Source of the DNA: Escherichia coli
Lineage (GTDB): Bacteria; Pseudomonadota; Gammaproteobacteria; Enterobacterales; Enterobacteriaceae
Assembly: GCF_044647545.1 (NCBI RefSeq)
Contig: NZ_CP172818.1
DNA: 64,000 nucleotides
Direction: 5' to 3' (one strand)
Below, in pieces: positions 973 to 54,476 of this stretch. Below the pieces are notes generated by a model, which had not been told where the DNA came from, searched no databases, and was given only the letters and a program-made list of their open reading frames with translations. The position numbers were made by a program, and so were the translations under genes. How positions within the stretch are numbered: the first letter of the stretch is position 1; each line of letters starts with the position of its first letter.

Positions 973-1941
<969 letters not shown>

Positions 1942-2139
1942 TTAACCTGCCAATATTGAGGATACAAACTATTTTCTTCTACCTCTAAAGGACGATGTAC
2001 GCTATGCCTTCCTGATGATGTATATCAAAGTAAAACCGCCATTTTCCCTTATTCTGTAGCGAAATAGCACGATCATGACGCTATATACATGATTACATAG
2101 CGAAAGTGTGGATGGTAAAAATCTCATTTACACGCTAGT

Positions 2140-2277
2140 ATCGGCTTAACCACTAAACACTCTAGCCTCTGCACCTGGGTCAACTGATACGGTGCTTTGG
2201 CCGTGACAATGCTCGTAAAGATTGCCACCAGGGCGAAGGAAGAAATGACTTCGCCTCCCGTATCTGGAAAGGTGTAC
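2140..2277 (+). ncRNA. Molybdenum-cofactor (Moco) riboswitch in the moaA 5' leader
   Basis: About 140 nt structured leader immediately upstream of the moaA ATG; position matches the known E. coli moaABCDE Moco RNA element; boundaries approximate. Confidence 0.55.
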
Positions 2278-3267
2278 ATGGCTTCACAACTGACTGATGC
2301 ATTTGCGCGTAAGTTTTACTACTTGCGCCTGTCGATTACCGATGTGTGTAACTTTCGTTGCACCTACTGCCTGCCGGATGGCTACAAACCGAGCGGCGTC
2401 ACCAATAAAGGCTTTCTTACCGTCGATGAAATTCGCCGGGTTACGCGCGCCTTCGCCAGTCTTGGCACCGAAAAAGTCCGTCTGACGGGCGGTGAGCCAT
2501 CTTTACGCCGCGACTTTACCGATATCATCGCCGCTGTGCGAGAAAACGACGCTATCCGCCAGATTGCGGTCACCACCAATGGTTACCGTCTGGAACGCGA
2601 TGTGGCGAACTGGCGCGATGCTGGACTTACTGGCATCAACGTCAGCGTTGATAGCCTTGACGCTCGCCAGTTTCATGCCATTACCGGGCAGGATAAATTC
2701 AACCAGGTCATGGCAGGGATCGATGCTGCATTTGAGGCCGGTTTTGAGAAGGTCAAAGTCAATACCGTGCTGATGCGTGATGTTAATCATCATCAGCTCG
2801 ACACCTTTCTGAACTGGATCCAGCATCGCCCTATCCAGCTGCGTTTCATCGAATTGATGGAAACGGGCGAGGGCAGCGAGCTCTTCCGTAAGCATCACAT
2901 CTCTGGTCAGGTTCTGCGGGACGAGCTACTGCGTCGCGGCTGGATCCACCAATTACGTCAACGCAGCGACGGTCCCGCGCAAGTCTTTTGTCATCCGGAT
3001 TACGCCGGAGAGATTGGCCTTATCATGCCGTATGAAAAAGACTTCTGCGCCACTTGCAACCGCCTGCGCGTTTCCTCCATTGGTAAACTCCATCTCTGCC
3101 TGTTTGGTGAAGGCGGCGTTAACCTGCGCGATCTGCTGGAAGACGATACCCAGCAACAGGCGCTGGAAGCGCGTATTTCAGCGGCGCTGCGGGAGAAAAA
3201 ACAGACCCATTTCCTGCATCAAAACAACACCGGTATTACGCAAAACTTATCGTACATTGGTGGCTAA
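2278..3267 (+). CDS. moaA: GTP 3',8-cyclase (radical SAM), molybdopterin biosynthesis
   Basis: 329 aa from ATG at 2278; CxxxCxxC radical-SAM motif (CNFRCTYC). Confidence 0.95.
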
Positions 3268-3288
3268 AACGTCAAAAGGAGAGATCAG

Positions 3289-3801
3289 ATGAGTCAGGTA
3301 AGCACTGAATTTATCCCGACCCGTATTGCTATTCTTACGGTTTCTAATCGTCGCGGTGAAGAAGACGATACCTCCGGTCACTATCTGCGCGACTCGGCGC
3401 AAGAAGCGGGCCATCACGTTGTCGATAAAGCCATTGTGAAAGAAAACCGCTACGCTATTCGCGCTCAGGTATCTGCGTGGATCGCCAGCGACGATGTACA
3501 AGTGGTGTTGATTACGGGTGGTACTGGCCTGACGGAAGGAGATCAGGCTCCCGAAGCGCTGCTGCCGTTGTTCGACCGTGAAGTTGAAGGTTTTGGTGAA
3601 GTGTTCCGGATGTTGTCGTTCGAAGAGATTGGCACTTCCACGTTGCAATCTCGTGCGGTAGCGGGCGTCGCTAACAAAACGCTGATTTTCGCCATGCCGG
3701 GTTCGACCAAAGCGTGCCGTACCGCATGGGAAAATATCATTGCGCCGCAGCTGGATGCCCGTACGCGTCCGTGTAATTTCCATCCACATTTGAAGAAATA
3801 A
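3289..3801 (+). CDS. moaB: Molybdenum cofactor biosynthesis protein B
   Basis: 170 aa ORF, operon position after moaA. Confidence 0.95.
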
Positions 3802-3803
3802 GT

Positions 3804-4289
3804 ATGTCGCAACTGACCCATATCAACGCCGCTGGCGAAGCGCACATGGTGGATGTCTCCGCCAAAGCGGAAACCGTGCGTGAAGCGCGCGCCGAAGCCT
3901 TTGTCACCATGCGCAGCGAGACGCTGGCGATGATTATTGATGGTCGCCACCACAAAGGCGACGTATTTGCCACTGCGCGTATTGCCGGTATTCAGGCGGC
4001 AAAACGCACCTGGGATCTGATCCCGCTGTGTCACCCGCTGATGCTCAGCAAAGTTGAAGTCAATTTACAGGCTGAGCCGGAGCACAATCGGGTACGTATA
4101 GAAACCTTATGCCGCCTGACCGGGAAAACCGGTGTCGAAATGGAAGCATTAACCGCGGCCTCCGTGGCGGCGCTGACCATTTATGACATGTGCAAAGCGG
4201 TGCAAAAAGATATGGTGATTGGTCCGGTACGTTTGCTGGCAAAGAGCGGCGGCAAATCAGGTGACTTTAAGGTGGAAGCGGATGATTAA
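3804..4289 (+). CDS. moaC: Cyclic pyranopterin monophosphate synthase
   Basis: 161 aa ORF, expected length. Confidence 0.95.
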
Positions 4290-4527
4290 AGTTCTTTTTT
4301 TCGCCCAGGTGCGCGAGTTGGTGGGAACAGATGCAACCGAAGTAGCTGCGGATTTCCCAACCGTTGAAGCGTTACGCCAACATCTGGCTGCGCAGAGCGA
4401 TCGCTGGGCGCTGGCGCTGGAAGATGGCAAATTGCTGGCTGCTGTCAACCAGACGCTGGTGAGTTTTGACCATCCGCTGACTGACGGCGACGAAGTGGCT
4501 TTCTTCCCGCCGGTAACCGGAGGTTAA
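4282..4527 (+). CDS. moaD: Molybdopterin synthase sulfur-carrier subunit
   Basis: 81 aa from internal Met ([13 protein letters not shown]...), C-terminal GG; overlaps moaC end. Confidence 0.9.
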
Positions 4528-4528
4528 G

Positions 4529-4981
4529 ATGGCAGAAACCAAAATTGTTATCGGCCCGCAGCCGTTCAGCGTAGGAGAAGAGTATCCGTGGCTGGCGGAG
4601 CGTGATGAAGACGGTGCGGTAGTCACCTTTACCGGTAAGGTGCGCAACCATAACCTTGGCGACAGCGTCAAAGCATTAACCCTCGAACACTATCCGGGGA
4701 TGACTGAAAAAGCACTGGCAGAAATTGTCGATGAAGCGCGTAACCGCTGGCCGCTGGGGCGCGTCACGGTGATTCACCGCATCGGGGAATTATGGCCGGG
4801 CGATGAAATCGTTTTTGTCGGTGTCACCAGTGCGCATCGCAGCAGTGCGTTTGAAGCCGGGCAGTTTATTATGGATTATCTCAAAACCCGCGCACCGTTC
4901 TGGAAGCGCGAAGCCACGCCGGAAGGCGACCGCTGGGTCGAAGCTCGGGAGAGCGATCAGCAGGCGGCAAAACGCTGGTAG
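4529..4981 (+). CDS. moaE: Molybdopterin synthase catalytic subunit
   Basis: 150 aa ORF starting 2 nt after moaD stop. Confidence 0.95.
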   Translation: MAETKIVIGPQPFSVGEEYPWLAERDEDGAVVTFTGKVRNHNLGDSVKALTLEHYPGMTEKALAEIVDEARNRWPLGRVTVIHRIGELWPGDEIVFVGVTSAHRSSAFEAGQFIMDYLKTRAPFWKREATPEGDRWVEARESDQQAAKRW

Positions 4982-17474: not shown

Positions 17475-17621
<147 letters not shown>

Positions 17622-40959: not shown

Positions 40960-42552
40960 GTGTTAGTTTCCAGTAACGTCACCATGCAGTTCGGCAGTAA
41001 GCCGTTGTTTGAAAACATTTCCGTCAAGTTTGGCGGCGGCAACCGTTACGGCCTGATTGGCGCGAACGGTAGTGGTAAATCCACCTTTATGAAGATCCTC
41101 GGCGGCGACTTAGAGCCGACGCTGGGTAACGTTTCCCTCGATCCCAACGAGCGCATTGGTAAGCTGCGTCAGGATCAGTTTGCCTTTGAAGAGTTCACTG
41201 TGCTGGATACGGTGATCATGGGGCATAAAGAATTATGGGAAGTGAAGCAGGAGCGCGACCGCATCTATGCTTTGCCGGAAATGAGTGAGGAAGACGGCTA
41301 TAAAGTGGCCGATCTGGAAGTGAAATACGGCGAAATGGACGGTTACTCTGCGGAAGCTCGCGCCGGTGAACTGTTGCTTGGCGTGGGAATTCCAGTGGAA
41401 CAGCACTACGGCCCGATGAGTGAAGTTGCTCCTGGCTGGAAGCTGCGTGTGCTGCTGGCGCAGGCGCTGTTTGCTGATCCGGACATTCTCCTGCTCGACG
41501 AACCGACCAACAACCTCGACATCGACACCATTCGTTGGCTGGAACAGGTGCTGAACGAGCGTGACAGCACCATGATCATCATCTCGCACGACCGTCACTT
41601 CCTTAACATGGTTTGTACCCACATGGCGGATCTGGATTACGGCGAGCTGCGCGTTTATCCGGGCAACTACGATGAGTACATGACGGCGGCGACCCAGGCG
41701 CGTGAACGTCTGCTGGCTGATAACGCCAAGAAGAAGGCGCAGATTGCTGAGCTGCAATCTTTCGTTAGCCGCTTTAGCGCCAACGCCTCGAAATCTCGCC
41801 AGGCAACTTCGCGCGCGCGCCAGATTGATAAAATCAAACTGGAAGAGGTGAAAGCCTCCAGCCGTCAGAACCCGTTCATCCGTTTTGAACAGGATAAGAA
41901 ACTGTTCCGTAACGCGCTGGAAGTGGAAGGTCTGACCAAAGGGTTTGATAACGGTCCGCTGTTTAAAAATCTCAACCTGCTGCTGGAAGTCGGTGAAAAA
42001 CTGGCGGTACTGGGTACCAACGGCGTCGGTAAATCAACGCTGTTGAAAACGCTGGTGGGCGATCTGCAACCGGACAGCGGCACCGTAAAATGGTCTGAAA
42101 ACGCGCGCATTGGTTACTATGCTCAGGACCACGAATATGAGTTTGAAAATGATCTGACCGTGTTCGAATGGATGAGCCAGTGGAAGCAGGAAGGCGATGA
42201 CGAGCAGGCGGTACGCAGCATTCTCGGTCGTTTGCTGTTCAGCCAGGACGACATTAAAAAGCCAGCTAAAGTGCTTTCCGGTGGGGAAAAAGGGCGGATG
42301 CTGTTTGGTAAGTTAATGATGCAGAAGCCGAACATTCTGATCATGGACGAACCGACCAACCACCTGGATATGGAATCTATTGAGTCGCTGAACATGGCGC
42401 TGGAACTGTATCAGGGCACGCTGATCTTTGTTTCACACGACCGTGAGTTCGTAAGCTCCCTGGCGACCCGTATTCTGGAAATCACCCCGGAACGCGTGAT
42501 CGACTTTAGCGGTAATTACGAAGATTATCTGCGTAGTAAAGGGATCGAGTAA
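40960..42552 (+). CDS. ybiT: ABC-F family ATPase with two nucleotide-binding domains, no membrane domain
   Basis: 530 aa; Walker [10 protein letters not shown] and GTNGVGKST. Confidence 0.9.
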
Positions 42553-42637
42553 CTGTTGATCTCGTTTCCCAGATCCAGCAGCTGCTGAGGTTGTCATAAA
42601 ACAGGCCGAAGCTAAACGTCATTGCGGCGGGTGATGG

Positions 42638-43205
42638 CTAATGGAATGTGTTGTACAGCGGGTCAGTACTCACGGCGTTGTAGCCCATCGCGTCGAGGTT
42701 ACGCATCTCGTAACGTTTACCGTTGCGTTGCAGGTCGCCGGCTTTATCTCCGAGGCCATAAAAGCGTTCATCTTTACGACGGCTCTGATAGTGCGCCACA
42801 CCGTCACCGTGGGCATTCAGCAGATAAGCGCTGGTCGGTCGGTCATTCACTAACGGCAGCCATTTCGTCTTCGTTGTTACTATAGTGCCACTCCAGCCAC
42901 AGCGGCTGGTGAACGGTGGACCAGTGACTCGGTGGCGATAACCACGGCGTTGTTGTGCTGGTTCAGGTTCATGCGGGCAGGCCAGCCGCTGGACATTTTG
43001 CCGGCCGCGCCCTTCCCGATGGCACATCCTGCTGGAGCAATGCTCCAGGTGCGATCCAGCGCCAGCTCGCCTTTGCGTTTTAACAGCACGCGGAACAGAA
43101 TTCCAGCACGTACAGACGCAATACGCCCGCCATCGACCAGCAGTTCAACGTGGTGGGCAGACTGTTTGAGGTCCAGTTTTTCAGCGTTTCGACGTTGCAC
43201 ATCAC
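42638..43205 (-). pseudogene. Glycoside hydrolase family 31-like N-terminal fragment, frameshifted and 3'-truncated
   Basis: Two consecutive frames: ...HHVELLVDGGRIASVRAGILFRV...NQHNNAVVIATESL then ...RFYGLGDKAGDLQRNGKRYEMRNLDAMGYNAVSTDPLY-stop; same motif spacing as YicI ([23 protein letters not shown]); about 190 aa retained of an expected 700+. Confidence 0.55.
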
Positions 43206-43207
43206 TC

Positions 43208-44445
43208 TCAGGCGCGTTTTGCGCGACGTTCAGCAATAAAGGTGACCAGGAAGAAAGCGCCAATCAGGTCAAAGAAGCCCATGGCGATAAACAGGGCTTA
43301 AAGCCGATTTTGTCAGCAGTAACCCCGATAATCAGGGAGAAACAGGAAACTTGCTATCGACGCGGCAGAACCGCGCATGCCGTTACAGTGGCCATCTGAC
43401 CTTTGTCGAGGATTCCACTACTAATGCGCTAAGCATGCAGGAGATGATCTGGTCAACCGAAGCCGCCTATGGAAGATAAGGACGATGGCGATATGGGTTA
43501 TCCAGAAAGGCCATCACCGCCAGCGAAACCATCAGGAATGCGCCACTGACCGATCTATGCGCAATGGAGTTCACACTGACTCAGCCCAAACAGGCGGGTG
43601 TAAAGTTTGGTCAGATAGCCGCTGGCAATACTGCCAAGATCAGCGGCGAAGGAACGGCAACCAGGCGAAAGAGTGCGATCTGCTTCAGGTCGATGCCATA
43701 GGCATCTGGACAGGTATAGCGGAACCCAGAAACTCATCACCGCCCACGCCGGTTCTGCCATAAAGGCTGGGATAGTGATACCGTAAAAGCGTTTATTTTT
43801 GCCCACGGTTTTCAGTGCGGTCAGAAAGGGTAACTTGACCGGGGAGCTTCGTTATCCTGGCGGAGCAACCAGCTTGGCTTCGCTGAAGGTCAGGATGCTT
43901 ATCCGGGTTGCGATAAAACCCACCACAGCACCACCCACAGCATCGCCAGGATGCCAGTGGCATAAATGCGCCCTGCCAGCGAATGAAGCGTGGGCAAAAT
44001 AGATAATCGGTGGGGCCAGCATGGCACCGATGGAGTCTACGTCTGCCCAGCGGCGATCGGGCGTTGCGATTTTGGAAACCATTCACCTCATAGTTTTGGG
44101 GTTTGCCGGGGTGGCCGCGGCTTCCGCACCGCCCGATAAAGAAGCGCAACAGCGCCAGATGTACCCAGTTTCCCGCCCCCGCATGCATCAGACAGGCCAG
44201 CGCCCACAGCCCCTGTGCAGATCAGAAGCCCAGTTTGAGGCCAATGACGTCAATGAGCCACCGCATAACGGTTGAAATAGGGTATAGGCGAGTTGGAAAG
44301 CACCTACAATCCAGGAATATTGTTTTGTGCAATCCCCAGGCTGCTTTTCAACTCGGCGTACACCCAGCGAATTACGTGTGATGTAGTTGACAGTAACACC
44401 GAGCAAAAAAAGGACCAGCATCCACCAACGCAGATTTTTGAACAC
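43208..44445 (-). pseudogene. ExuT-like (anion:cation symporter family MFS) sugar-acid transporter, multiply frameshifted
   Basis: Fragments in at least four frames align in order along ExuT: N-terminus MFKNLRWWMLVLFLLGVTVNYITRN...KQYSWIVGAFQLAYTLFQP, then WRCCGWCCGGFYRNPDKHPDL, then KNKRFYGITIPAFMAEPAWAVMSFWVPLYL, then C-terminus IGVTADKIGFKP...FIAMGFFDLIGAFFLVTFIAERRAKRA. Confidence 0.7.
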
Positions 44446-44779
44446 CGGCGTGGTTTACTGGCAGTCATATCAATCGATACCCACTGATATGCACTCCACA
44501 GAATGGTATAGGGGGGCGGCAACGTCAGACGGAGTTGTCACACCACTTTTAACCTTTTGATAAATAAAGTCTTTATTGTCTGTTTTTCCATTGTTCTTGT
44601 ACTGGAAGTTGTTGTCACATTTTTACAGTAAGAGACACTAAAAGCGAAAAAGAAAGCGGGTTTTGTGCACGTTTTTCCATGCGGCCCATACATTACTGAA
44701 ATGGATTTAATGCCAGACAGAATGGGCTTTTTTTGCTCATGAAAATTCTGTCATTTCCGAATTAGAGGACATCAGAAAT

Positions 44780-45830
44780 CGGCAAAGAGCTTAAATTGCC
44801 GATATCGCCGCACGTACCGGATTATCGCCGATACGGTTTCGCGGGTGCTGCTGGCAAAGCGAATACCAGTGCACGCGCTCGCGAACAGGCGCTGGCCTGC
44901 GCGTGAGTTGGGCGCGATGGATGGCATGGCAGCAGGTCATGTTGCTGAATACAACTCATCATTTTGCGCCGCAACGCGCGTTTGACCAACGATCTGATAT
45001 CTTTTATTACCTGGTGTGATCCAGCATCAGCAAAGCGTTATCGCCCGCATGAAGTGCGGCTGCGTTACTGCGTGTTAAGGTAGTTCTACAGCTGATCCCT
45101 GGCGTGATCTGGCGGCATGAATGAAGCAGATACGCAGGCGGCGATCCTGCTGGGGATCGACGATCCGCACATCCATGATCTGGCCGCCGATCGCTAAGCC
45201 TTGCGCTGATCGACTGCTGGTGATGAACGAATGCGCCTCCCGACGATTGCGCCGGACCATCGGTTAATCGGCGTGTCTGCCGCCCGCTATCTGTTTGAAA
45301 TGGGTCACCGGGAGGTGATGAACGTTATGTGCCTGCGCTCGGCCACACTATGGAGCAGCGGTTTGCAGGGATCAAAGAATCATGGCGTCAGCATAATCTG
45401 GCCTTTCACCATGACCGTCATTTGCTGAATATCAGCAGTTTTCTCAGCGCTAAAGAAGCGGAAGAAGGTCGGAGCGCGGCCTGATGCCGCCAATGGCAAT
45501 ACGTTGCCGACGGCGTTTCTGGTCGGCGGGGATTTTTATGGCGGCGGGAACGGTAAATGCGCTACATCGTCGTGGTCTGCGCGTACCACAGGATGTCTCG
45601 GTGATGAGTATCGATGGTCTTCAATCTTGCGGCAATCGAGGATGTTCCCGACGGCTGTGACGTGCCACGCGATCAGCTAAGGGTTAAGTGGTGCAAATGT
45701 TGCAACAGCGGCTGATTCGCCGGATGTCTGCGGTGGGCTCGCTGCTGCTGCACGGACGATTAGCGGTGCGGACGCGCGGCGGTTGCCCAGGAAAAGGGAA
45801 CACCGCCGTGGAACGGGAAGGGCTGTACGA
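44780..45830 (+). pseudogene. LacI-family transcriptional regulator, multiply frameshifted
   Basis: N-terminal helix-turn-helix spread over three frames (IADIAARTGLSP / TVSRVL / GKANTSARAREQALACA); sugar-binding-domain fragments PDHRLIGVSAARYLFEMGHREV and ALHRRGLRVPQDVSVMSIDG; boundaries approximate. Confidence 0.65.
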
Positions 45831-45833
45831 CAA

Positions 45834-47102
45834 TCATTCCATTCCCAGCGCTCGCTTACCGTGAATGTTGAGGTCGGCAAGCGTAAAGCGTCCTTCCCAG
45901 TTTGTTTCATAGTCCTCGCGCGGGAAGTCGCCCGGCGATGCGCCTTTTTCCAGTGCGGCCTTCACCTTGTGCGCGTAGGCAAGATTTTTCTCGCACATCG
46001 GTGCCGCAGGAATGTACATCACGTTGCCCCAACCCTGTTGATTTTCAACGGGGGCAACGGAATGGATGACGTCGCAGTGCCACCAGACGGAGTCTCCGGC
46101 TTCGAGTTGTGGAATGCTGGTTAATGCCTCAATCAACAGTGGATGCCATTGCTCTGATACCGGCAACACTCTTCCGGGCGCTACGCCGCACAGTTCATCC
46201 TCCGGCACATCATCAAGCAGCGGACGTAACAGCACGTACGCCATGGCTTCAGGAATGGGCACGACGTGCAGCAGTCCCTGACCAGGCAGCATATCAGAGA
46301 GCGCTGTCCAGCCCTGGAATGTCCGAAACACGGAACATTTGGTGGTGTTGTCCACCGTGTACTCTTCAACTTCTGTACGATGTGCCGCATGCCAGGGATC
46401 ATATTGCGCCAGATTGCCATTAAAGACGTTGGCGAAAACGCGCTGATACGCTGGAAGCAGCCAGCGTTCCAGTGCCCCGGAGTCGGTATGCGCTCCGAGA
46501 CCTTTGGAGGCCGTTCCGGGCGGACGGCGGCGGATACGGTCAGGGTAGATGACGCTCACATCCGGGTTAAACCATTGCTTTCCATCACTTTCAAATGTCC
46601 ACAGACGATTGAGAAACGACTGCGCATTCGCCATTTCTTCACTCTGGCGGGCCTGCATTTGCGCCTGCGACCAGTAGATGGGGTAAATCTCGGGACGTGA
46701 AGCGCTGAGCGTCCCGAAGAAATTATCGCCGGGGCCTTTGTAGACCTCATCAAAGCGGTTGCGGTCCAGATAGTCCAGCATCGACTGATCCCAGCCTAGC
46801 GCTTGTTCGCGGGGGAAATGGCCTTTTATCACCGCACAACCGCGACGTTTAATCTGTTCGCGTTGCTCTGCAGTAACATGACCTGCTTTGATATCGGCAT
46901 AAGACAGCACCGGCCAGACTGCATCGCCCTGTGCTTTGAGTGCGTTGATTTCAGCCACTCGCGTGGCAATGTCATCGCTTAGCTGATTAAAGATCTGCTG
47001 GACGTCGCCAAGCTGCGCCCGCAGCGCGTGCTTCATCTGACGGATAGCTGCTTTGTGATCGGCAGGCAATGTGTTGCTGGTAAAAGTAGAAGCCATAACC
47101 AC
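45834..47102 (-). CDS. ybiU: DUF1479 family protein
   Basis: 422 aa intact ORF. Confidence 0.85.
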   Translation of the reverse strand: MVMASTFTSNTLPADHKAAIRQMKHALRAQLGDVQQIFNQLSDDIATRVAEINALKAQGDAVWPVLSYADIKAGHVTAEQREQIKRRGCAVIKGHFPREQALGWDQSMLDYLDRNRFDEVYKGPGDNFFGTLSASRPEIYPIYWSQAQMQARQSEEMANAQSFLNRLWTFESDGKQWFNPDVSVIYPDRIRRRPPGTASKGLGAHTDSGALERWLLPAYQRVFANVFNGNLAQYDPWHAAHRTEVEEYTVDNTTKCSVFRTFQGWTALSDMLPGQGLLHVVPIPEAMAYVLLRPLLDDVPEDELCGVAPGRVLPVSEQWHPLLIEALTSIPQLEAGDSVWWHCDVIHSVAPVENQQGWGNVMYIPAAPMCEKNLAYAHKVKAALEKGASPGDFPREDYETNWEGRFTLADLNIHGKRALGME

Positions 47103-52339: not shown

Positions 52340-52491
52340 CCGGACGTTCTGCATCCTCATCAATTGCTGATAACGTTGTGGAGTGCACCAAGCTTCCGCG
52401 CCTGAAATTCGCCCGAACTAGGCAGATAAGGTTACGCCGATTGGGTCTGAGAAAATTATCTGCCGCGACTTATCAGGCCTGGGGCTGGCAG

Positions 52492-53241
52492 TTACTGCCC
52501 GCACACCTCACACCCCGGATTACGCATCAGTTTCATTTCGCGAAACTGACAGGTCATCGCATCGTACATCACGATTTTTCCGCTGGCCGGTTTGCCATAA
52601 CCTGCCAGCAGTTTGATCGCTTCCATTGCCTGCAACGAACCAATTACGCCGATTAACGGTGCCATCACGCCTGCTTCTACGCAGGTTAACGCGTTCTCGC
52701 CAAACAAACGGCTAAGGCAGCGATAGCACGGTTCGCCGTCCTGATAAGTGAAGACCGTGATTTGCCCTTCCATACGAATTGCCGCGCCGGAAACCAGCGG
52801 CACCTTCGCGGCAAAACAGCCTGCGTTCAGTTGATTACGTACTGCAACGTTATCCGTACAGTCGAGCACCAGATCGTGTTTTGCAATCATCGCAGCAAGT
52901 TCAGCGTCATCAAGCAGTGCATTGACTGGCGTAATCGCGATATGTGGGTTGATCCGCGTCAGGGCGTCACGGGCGGATTTCACCTTCGGTTGCCCGACCG
53001 TGGCATCGCTGTGCAGCGTCTGGCGTTGCAGATTCGAGAGCGAAACCGTGTCGAAGTCGAGCAGCGTCAGGTTGCCGACACCGGCGCTTGCCAGATACTG
53101 CGAAGCTGCGCAGCCGAGTCCACCGAGGCCGACGATCAGCACACGAGAATCTTTTAGCGCCTCCTGACCGTCAAAATCAAAACCGCGCAGAATGATTTGC
53201 CGGTTGTAGCGCAGCATCTCCTGATCGCTGAGTTCCGCCAT
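52492..53241 (-). CDS. moeB: Molybdopterin-synthase adenylyltransferase
   Basis: 249 aa with GxGxxG dinucleotide fold and C-terminal CxxC pairs. Confidence 0.95.
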   Translation of the reverse strand: MAELSDQEMLRYNRQIILRGFDFDGQEALKDSRVLIVGLGGLGCAASQYLASAGVGNLTLLDFDTVSLSNLQRQTLHSDATVGQPKVKSARDALTRINPHIAITPVNALLDDAELAAMIAKHDLVLDCTDNVAVRNQLNAGCFAAKVPLVSGAAIRMEGQITVFTYQDGEPCYRCLSRLFGENALTCVEAGVMAPLIGVIGSLQAMEAIKLLAGYGKPASGKIVMYDAMTCQFREMKLMRNPGCEVCGQ

Positions 53242-54476
53242 TACAGGCCTCCGAACAACGCGTTAAACGGTTCTACTTCCACCCATTCGCCCACTTCCAC
53301 ATTGCCGCGATCGCGTTCCAGCACGATAAAGCAGTTGCCGAGGCTAAAGGAGCTAAATATATGTGAACCCTGATGTCCGGTGGTCGTCACTTCCAGTTCG
53401 CCATCGGCGTTGCGTTGCAGCACGCCGCGCTGGAAATCAAGGCGTCCTGGCGATTTCTTCAGAGGCGATGCCGTGCGCACACGCTGGCGCGCGGGCAGGC
53501 CGCTGGCGGTATTGCCGCTTAGTTTTGCCAGCAAAGGCTGTACCAGTTGATAGAAGGTCAGCGTTGCTGAAACCGGGTTGCCCGGCAGGCCGCAGAACCA
53601 GCTATTGCTGAGTTTACCGAACGCGAACGGTTTACCTGGTTTAATCGCCAGCTTCCAGAAGGCGATCTCCCCCAGCTCTTCAAGAATGGTTTTGGTGTAA
53701 TCCGCTTCACCCACTGAAACACCGCCGGAACTGATCACCACATCCGCCTGGCTGTCGGCTTCAATAAATGCGGCGCGCAGGGCATGGGGATCGTCGCGGA
53801 TAATCCCTAAGTTGATTACCTCGCATCCCAACTGTTCTAACATCAGGTGTACGGCGAGACGGTTGGTATCGTAGATTTGGCCGTCGCCCAGCGGCTGGCC
53901 TGGCAACTGGAGTTCATCACCGGTAGAAAACAGCGCTACACGCACTTTACGAATCACCGGAACTTCGGCAATCCCCAGTGAAGCAATTACTGGCAGCTCT
54001 GCGGTAGTCAGGCGAGTCCCCGCCGGGAAAACAACCGCACCTGCAGAGATATCTTCACCGCGACGGCGAATATTTTGCCCGCTACGCACTTCAGCAGTAA
54101 AACGCACGCCATTGTCCGTTTGTTCAGTCTGCTCCTGCATCACCACCGCTTCGCAGCCTTCCGGCACCGGCGCACCGGTCATAATACGAATGCAGGTACC
54201 CGCAGGCCATTCACCATGGTACGGCTGACCGGCAAAGGATTTACCGGCAACGGGCAGCGGTTGCCCGGAGGCAATATCGGCTAAACGCACCGCGTAGCCG
54301 TCCATAGCGGAGTTATCAAACCCCGGGACATCCAGTGGCGAAACGACATCGCTCGCCAGAATACGACCAAAACACTGAACCAGTGGCAGCGTTTCCTGGG
54401 CGGTCAGTGGGGTAACGCGAGAAAGCATCTCATTAAGCGCGGTGTCGAGCGACATCAATCCGGTGGTAAATTCCAT
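53241..54476 (-). CDS. moeA: Molybdopterin molybdenumtransferase
   Basis: 411 aa ORF; stop/start overlap with moeB. Confidence 0.95.

Follow-up and report, generated by a model that had tools for sequence, protein, structure and literature searches.

The leader of Escherichia coli moaA is the known molybdenum cofactor riboswitch: exact interval, family-wide covariation and a competing lower-energy fold

A molybdenum cofactor (Moco) riboswitch is annotated automatically at moaA in nearly every Escherichia coli genome, and the underlying Moco RNA motif was described in 2007–2008 (Weinberg 2007; Regulski 2008). The closest described system is the element of E. coli K-12, which stands in front of moaABCDE, folds into five stems (P1–P5, including P3) with a GAAA tetraloop on P4, and carries its Shine–Dalgarno (SD) sequence in P1. 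In published work on this RNA (Regulski 2008), a lacZ translational fusion under a constitutive promoter was repressed more than threefold upon induction of Moco synthesis, repression was lost in a mutant that disrupts P3 (M1) and regained in one that restores it (M2), in-line probing was consistent with P3, P4 and P5, and the ribosome-binding site (RBS) was placed within P1. The same study concluded that the RNA tells Moco apart from close analogues, and it read mutations in biosynthesis genes as an indication that Moco is the ligand; instability of the compounds precluded a direct ligand-binding test (Regulski 2008). According to a 2024 paper, the moaA riboswitch has been demonstrated to work through translation, and the metabolite that regulates moaA is still unidentified. 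Two further layers of control appear in published sources: a review describes CsrA as binding two sites in the aptamer and activating moaA translation, apparently by exposing the SD, and Rho-dependent 3′ ends have been reported at moaA together with a more than twofold increase of a moaA fusion in a rho R66S mutant. A second kind of system, the Tuco-type variants (proposed sensors of tungsten cofactor), shares the junction core, P1, P2, P4 and P5 with the E. coli element.

Here we analysed the moaA leader in a 64-kb stretch of E. coli chromosome that carries uvrB, yvcK and moaABCDE (hereafter, the window). A partial uvrB ends at position 937 and is followed by yvcK (973–1881, minus strand), a yvcK–moaA intergenic region of 396 nt and the regulated moaABCDE operon (2278–4981, plus strand), which comprises moaA (2278–3267), moaB (3289–3801), moaC (3804–4289), moaD (4282–4527) and moaE (4529–4981), all on the plus strand; all five genes gave NCBIfam equivalog matches above the cut-off, and RefSeq agrees with these assignments. 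The moaA start in RefSeq is the ATG at 2278, in agreement with the alignment to the MoaA profile. Two open reading frames that span the leader (2197–3267, plus strand, opening with TTG; and 2124–2279, minus strand) were not supported as coding, given that the MoaA profile starts at residue 5 of the protein read from the ATG at 2278. Further Moco-biosynthesis genes, moeB (52492–53241) and moeA (53241–54476), both on the minus strand, also lie within the window; neither Rfam nor our own covariance model detected a Moco motif at moeB/moeA, and within the window only the moa operon carries the riboswitch.

An Rfam scan of the whole window at gathering thresholds returned two matches in all. One of these was RF01055, the Molybdenum/Tungsten riboswitch aptamer (Moco RNA motif), which was found once only in the 64 kb, at 2146–2290 on the plus strand. 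The match (cmscan) scored 103.4 bits against a gathering score of 36 (E = 1.2e-24) and covered model positions 1–135 of 135 without truncation. Our own covariance model (R1) returned the same interval (2146–2290) with 120.7 bits and no other match in the window. The RefSeq feature ‘molybdenum cofactor riboswitch’ likewise maps to 2146–2290, by way of a strain with a 100% identical 1900–2400 stretch; RefSeq annotation (PGAP) itself uses Rfam, and this correspondence is agreement rather than independent proof. A sequence-only reading of this DNA had proposed a Moco riboswitch ahead of moaA and had named a covariance-model search as the way to check it: the search gave a significant, full-length RF01055 match at 2146–2290, and the identification is upheld by a score nearly three times the gathering score, by the moaABCDE context and by the RefSeq label. 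The boundaries given there, 2140–2277, were close and shift to a 5′ end at 2146 and a 3′ end at 2290, and the leader of about 140 nt described there does precede moaA, but it also overlaps the start codon. The 3′ end lies at 2290 rather than 2277 because the outer P1 pairs use 2281–2284, and the element thereby includes the SD, the AUG (2278–2280) and the first four moaA codons, an overlap of 13 nt with the coding sequence. A position directly upstream of moaA (moaABCDE) and overlapping its start is the expected location for the Moco RNA motif. The leader is, in short, the known and already annotated E. coli moaA Moco riboswitch and nothing new; what the check adds is the exact interval, covariation support for P1–P5 and the finding that the rival minimum-free-energy (MFE) fold discussed below is not conserved in the family.

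The stretch at 1900–2400 was found in 5,424 of 5,426 complete E. coli genomes, with the records listed labelled as ‘riboswitch’ and ‘moaA’, and in 5,396 of those 5,424 the 145-nt element shows an identity of 99% or more; only five differences separate it from its counterpart in E. albertii. The earlier impression of a conserved-looking leader was therefore well founded, and the core is recognisable across many phyla. Among complete E. coli assemblies, two matches to the moaA leader sit on plasmid-classed records, and a second copy is present in some genomes. Across 1900–2400, a K-12 derivative (NEB10-beta) differs from the window at three positions only: one inside the Rfam interval (2146) and two upstream of it, in the promoter region (1998 and 2010). 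Position 2146, a T here and an A in the K-12 derivative, is unpaired and lies at or just before the S1 transcription start. From 2147 to 2290 the two are identical, so that this is the same RNA as the ‘138 moaA’ and ‘149 moaA’ constructs of Regulski 2008.

We mapped the Rfam consensus structure onto the window sequence to describe the anatomy of the element (all features on the plus strand). All five stems (P1–P5) are present, and 34 of the 42 consensus pairs are canonical in the E. coli sequence. P1 is an interrupted helix: its 5′ strand (2148–2162) pairs through 2148, 2149, 2151, 2157–2160 and 2162, and its 3′ strand (2271–2284) through 2271–2275, 2281, 2283 and 2284, which covers the 3′ end of the SD and flanks the start codon, with the moaA AUG (2278–2280) between the inner and outer pairs. 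The P2 hairpin (2165–2201; 2165–2181 with 2186–2201) has an internal loop (2168–2170/2196–2198) and a tetraloop-receptor-like bulge (CCUGGG 2174–2179/UACGG 2188–2192). This receptor reads CCUGGG/UACGG in both E. coli and E. albertii, compared with CCUAAG/UAUGG in the canonical 11-nt receptor, a variant onto which the P4 GAAA loop may still dock; in the family alignment described below, CCUGG occurs in 3 of 99 rows and CCUAA in 38. P3 (2203–2228) pairs 2203–2207 with 2224–2228 around a 16-nt loop (2208–2223), and P4 (2231–2256) pairs 2231–2241 with 2246–2256 beneath a GAAA tetraloop (2242–2245). P5 (2257–2267) is a mini-hairpin in which CC (2257–2258) pairs with GG (2266–2267) across a 7-nt loop; it shows no variation in the family, in part as a consequence of the search pattern, which fixed it. 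The junction AAA (2268–2270) follows. The SD purines, GGAAAGGUG (2266–2274), run through the 3′ strand of P5 and the AAA junction into the first part of the P1 3′ strand, and are separated by 3 nt from the AUG at 2278; in all ten gamma-proteobacterial seed sequences, GGAAAGGUG has a start codon after it at a distance within 3–4 nt. The conserved junction blocks are all present (AGGG, 2230–2233; CCUCCC, 2254–2259; UGGAAAGG, 2265–2272), and the interval 2146–2290 contains two GGA triplets only, one in distal P4 (2238–2240) and one within the SD (2266–2268).

The fold was further assessed across the family. An exact-pattern scan of species-representative genomes with the core GAAA…CCTCCC…TGGAAAGG yielded at least 120 loci, from Gammaproteobacteria, Deltaproteobacteria, Bacillota, Chloroflexi, Actinomycetota and others. 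We constructed our covariance model from ten gamma-proteobacterial leaders, carrying over the Rfam structure by way of the E. coli row. Run on 100 sources, it located 99 sites, three of them without the exact search pattern and a single one in the window. A MAFFT alignment misplaced the 5′ halves of distant sequences, and the model-based alignment was used instead. In this 99-site alignment, 85.5% of cells form standard pairs (37–44% when the 3′ partners are slid by 1–3 columns), a margin that is large even though fitting the alignment to the structure by the model somewhat inflates pairing. The covariation score is 0.492 (0.07–0.09 in the slid controls). Both sides change in 35 of the 41 pairs, and no shuffle out of 500 attained the observed values. 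The P1 pairs covary (helices 1–4), all 11 main pairs of P2 change on both sides, and P4 has 92.1% of its cells paired and 8 of its 11 pairs changing on both sides; at most positions of P2 and P4, four to six pair types occur. Independent covariation across many phyla thus supports the P1–P5 fold.

P3 behaves differently from the other stems, being present in 50 of the 99 sites, with about half of the sites having little or nothing in the P3 columns. This agrees with the two groups, with and without P3, that are distinguished in Regulski 2008. Tuco-type variants lack P3, whereas the E. coli element has it (2203–2228) and requires it functionally; the presence of the stem (2203–2207/2224–2228) therefore places the E. 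coli element in the Moco group and not in the proposed Tuco group. Several sources carry more than one motif: three in Geothermobacter hydrogeniphilus (L059; 2236–2355, 2619–2744 and 6193–6313), two in Syntrophomonas sp. UBA5288 (L072; 3192–3301 and 4387–4494) and two in a further locus (L044; 4813–4934 and 8202–8326), in line with the multi-copy arrangements in Syntrophomonas and Geobacter that Regulski 2008 describes.

Folding the single sequence gives a different picture. The MFE of the full-length element is −42.0 kcal/mol (z-score, −1.57; equalled or bettered by 14 of 200 shuffles), compared with −26.6 kcal/mol for the consensus pairs alone and −33.2 kcal/mol for the completed consensus fold. 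With this weak z-score and an MFE structure that differs from the family fold, single-sequence folding was set aside as evidence for the element. The MFE structure retains P3 and P4 and replaces P1, P2 and P5 with a set of competing pairings (2164–2167/2280–2283, 2170–2176/2270–2276, 2180–2182/2265–2267 and 2186–2192/2258–2264), the core of which is a perfect 7-bp complement between GAUACGG (2186–2192, the P2 3′ strand and receptor) and CCGUAUC (2258–2264, the P5 loop). The difference in energy and the perfect complement would both be expected if, in E. coli and its close relatives, the functional switch lay between the aptamer and this specific competing fold rather than between a closed and an open P1. 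The competing pairs also remain possible in related genera (21 of 21 in E. albertii and Enterobacter, 19 of 21 in Citrobacter), and the 7-bp complement is pairable in E. albertii, Citrobacter and Enterobacter (with one G–C changed to a G–U wobble in Enterobacter). However, the substitutions within Enterobacteriaceae are few and wobble-compatible with both folds, so that the pairs persist only through sequence conservation and through changes that suit either fold equally, and close relatives do not discriminate between the two. Across the 99 sites, the competing fold showed no covariation: 61.5% of cells were paired (60.7% in shuffles), and its score of 0.103 (0.100 in shuffles) was reached by 139 of 500 shuffles. 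It is accordingly rejected as the family structure.

The order of synthesis also bears on this alternative. Nascent transcripts with 3′ ends at 2201–2276 all have the consensus fold as their MFE structure, and the competing fold takes over only once 2280–2283 have been transcribed; the aptamer should therefore form first, and the competing fold would require P2, already formed, to unfold. The competing fold pairs the SD as well, and by itself it gives no ON state: the mean unpaired probability of 2266–2275 is 0.37 in the free ensemble and 0.21 with P1–P5 enforced, and the energy model consequently predicts no clearly SD-open ligand-free state, for which activation by CsrA may compensate. In favour of an alternative conformation, in-line probing of the refolded RNA disagreed with the model over much of P2 (Regulski 2008), and published DMS-MaPseq data show the refolded RNA in two or more conformations. 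The competing fold may lie behind both observations, as a minor possibility. Weighing these points together, we consider a functional switch between the aptamer and the competing fold unlikely. An extended version is that the leader of Escherichia and close Enterobacteriaceae has three states—a co-transcriptional aptamer, a ligand-locked aptamer and a more stable, lineage-specific trap (2164–2192/2258–2283) that also hides the SD, with CsrA at the GGA triplets at 2238 and 2266 needed to rescue translation. This version, if true, could explain the unstructured-looking P2, the two or more refolded conformations and the role of CsrA as an activator, and we hold it to be similarly improbable.

With the five-stem aptamer as the preferred structure, an expression platform is recognisable, in which the SD (2266–2274) is distributed over P5, the junction and the P1 3′ strand ahead of the AUG at 2278. 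Closure of P1 costs about +0.5 kcal/mol in the nearest-neighbour model, making P1 marginal without extra stabilisation. A terminator scan of 2146–2350 found no intrinsic terminator in or after the leader, and the likely mechanism is therefore a ligand-stabilised P1 that blocks translation initiation. Attenuation by an intrinsic terminator was rejected; the single site detected (1866–1879) falls within yvcK, which is encoded on the opposite strand, and precedes both promoters. Very probably, then, the E. coli moaA Moco riboswitch is a cis-acting OFF switch in which a ligand-locked P1 hides the SD and Rho subsequently ends the untranslated mRNA. Transcripts from S1 would start near 2147, on the 5′ boundary of the element, and those from S2, about 87 nt further upstream, would contain the element too. 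The nascent RNA would fold into the five-stem aptamer around a multistem junction, with the P4 GAAA loop poised to dock on the receptor-like bulge of P2. When abundant, Moco or a close late intermediate would presumably bind the junction and lock P1; the SD purines in the P1 3′ strand and P5 would be hidden and the AUG flanked, excluding the 30S subunit and leaving moaA untranslated. Rho-dependent termination on the untranslated leader mRNA would then reduce the output of all of moaABCDE. CsrA bound within the aptamer would have the opposite effect and open the SD; its two sites may correspond to the GGA triplets, a candidate contact at 2238–2240 in distal P4 (plus strand) and the second at 2266–2268.

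The part played by Rho allows for another reading, in which the main output is premature, Rho-dependent termination of transcription within the leader or the beginning of moaA, instead of regulated translation initiation. The Rho-dependent 3′ ends at moaA and the more than twofold higher fusion activity in rho R66S are what this reading would lead one to expect. By contrast, the element has no intrinsic terminator in or after it, the published repression was measured with a translational fusion under a constitutive promoter, and the 2024 paper has the riboswitch acting on translation. Rho termination is moreover the expected consequence of an untranslated leader, and it complements SD sequestration instead of being a true alternative to it. 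Termination as the main output is accordingly decidedly unlikely in our assessment.

We infer that Moco itself binds the leader RNA. A structured RNA could also be conserved if Moco were sensed indirectly, with a protein or another metabolite relaying its status and the RNA serving as a platform for a protein such as CsrA. The literature contains no report of direct ligand binding to the RNA, CsrA binds two sites inside the aptamer and changes translation, and the element has exactly two GGA motifs, all of which would suit such a platform. The junction core, however, is shared by Proteobacteria, Chloroflexi, Actinomycetota and Bacillota metagenome-assembled genomes, many of which lack a Csr system, and this argues for a universal small-molecule ligand. 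No protein factor was found for the moaA leader region (Regulski 2008). The architecture (a multistem junction, a tetraloop and receptor and, according to Regulski 2008, both SD-type and terminator-type platforms) is typical of metabolite aptamers, and in that study the discrimination between analogues and the biosynthesis mutations implicate Moco. Indirect sensing thus appears very unlikely, and direct binding of the cofactor is retained as the preferred reading.

The region upstream of the element is consistent with the transcriptional control described for this operon. Regulski 2008, citing Anderson 2000, gives a 131-nt leader from promoter S1, a second promoter (S2) at −87 and activation of S1 by ModE; it also describes S2 as FNR-dependent. 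This numbering puts S1 at about 2147 and S2 at about 2060. Upstream of S1 is a palindromic ModE-type operator, CGCTATATACATGATTACATAGCG (2079–2102, plus strand). Nowhere else in the 64 kb does the ModE-type pattern TATAT-N7-TAYAT match, and 0.14 matches would be expected by chance. Upstream of S2 is an FNR-like site, ATGATGTATATCAA (2015–2028, plus strand), with 9 of 10 consensus bases; matches to the FNR pattern with one mismatch number 8 in the window, compared with 2.6 expected. A role of ATGATGTATATCAA as an FNR site, about 40 nt upstream of the S2 start placed near 2060, would fit the FNR dependence. Candidate −10 hexamers on the plus strand are TAGTAT (2136–2141) for S1, deduced from the sequence and the 131-nt leader, and, similarly deduced, TATTCT (2050–2055). 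A scan of 1850–2350 for consensus sigma-70 promoters returned nothing, as expected at S1 for an activator-dependent promoter. The S1 and S2 positions used here thus follow from the literature numbering together with weak −10 candidates, and should be taken as approximate. In E. coli strain 774 (NZ_CP183138.1; locus L002, 1779–2987), an IS4-like ISVsa5 transposase gene lies between yvcK and the moaA leader, at a place equivalent to just upstream of window position 2000. The end of the insertion sequence falls about 15 nt upstream of the FNR-like site, leaving about 160 nt to the riboswitch; the insertion could affect transcription of the moa operon in that strain.

Other features of the window were recorded in passing. 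The second Rfam match is to the ES036 (CssrF) small RNA (17544–17586, minus strand; 43.3 bits against a threshold of 37.6), in the rhlE–ybiA intergenic region. Its 43 nt (…TGCAATATATTGAATTTGCA…) lie between the REP-type palindromes gcctgatgcgctgcgcttatcaggcc and ggccggataaggcgtttacgccgcatccggc, and the match looks like the spacer of a BIME-type repeat rather than a dedicated small-RNA gene. Between ybiT (40960–42552) and ybiU (45834–47102), at about 42554–45800, strain FDAARGOS_497 has intact genes for a GH31 glycosidase, an MFS transporter and a LacI-family regulator. Beyond 42.5 kb the window does not match this strain throughout, which has no bearing on the riboswitch. The window lacks about 1.9 kb of this island; the remainder differs from FDAARGOS_497 by about 140 indel columns and about 127 substitutions, has no open reading frame of more than 155 amino acids, and looks like a decayed island remnant. 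In the fsa–moeB intergenic region (52396–52461), about 25 G+C-rich bases are absent relative to the reference strain, distributed along a short segment, which may represent variation in a REP-like repeat.

Among other E. coli riboswitches, those for thiamine pyrophosphate (TPP) at thiM and thiC, adenosylcobalamin at btuB and FMN at ribB likewise act through ligand-bound occlusion of the RBS without an intrinsic terminator, and Rho-dependent 3′ ends in the leader or early open reading frame are common to the TPP, btuB and ribB riboswitches and moaA. The TPP, btuB and ribB riboswitches differ from the moaA element in having an unrelated aptamer fold and ligand. At moaA, moreover, the SD lies within P1 and P5 of the aptamer itself, in contrast to the separate expression platform of the other three, CsrA binds inside the aptamer, and ligand binding is deduced rather than observed directly.
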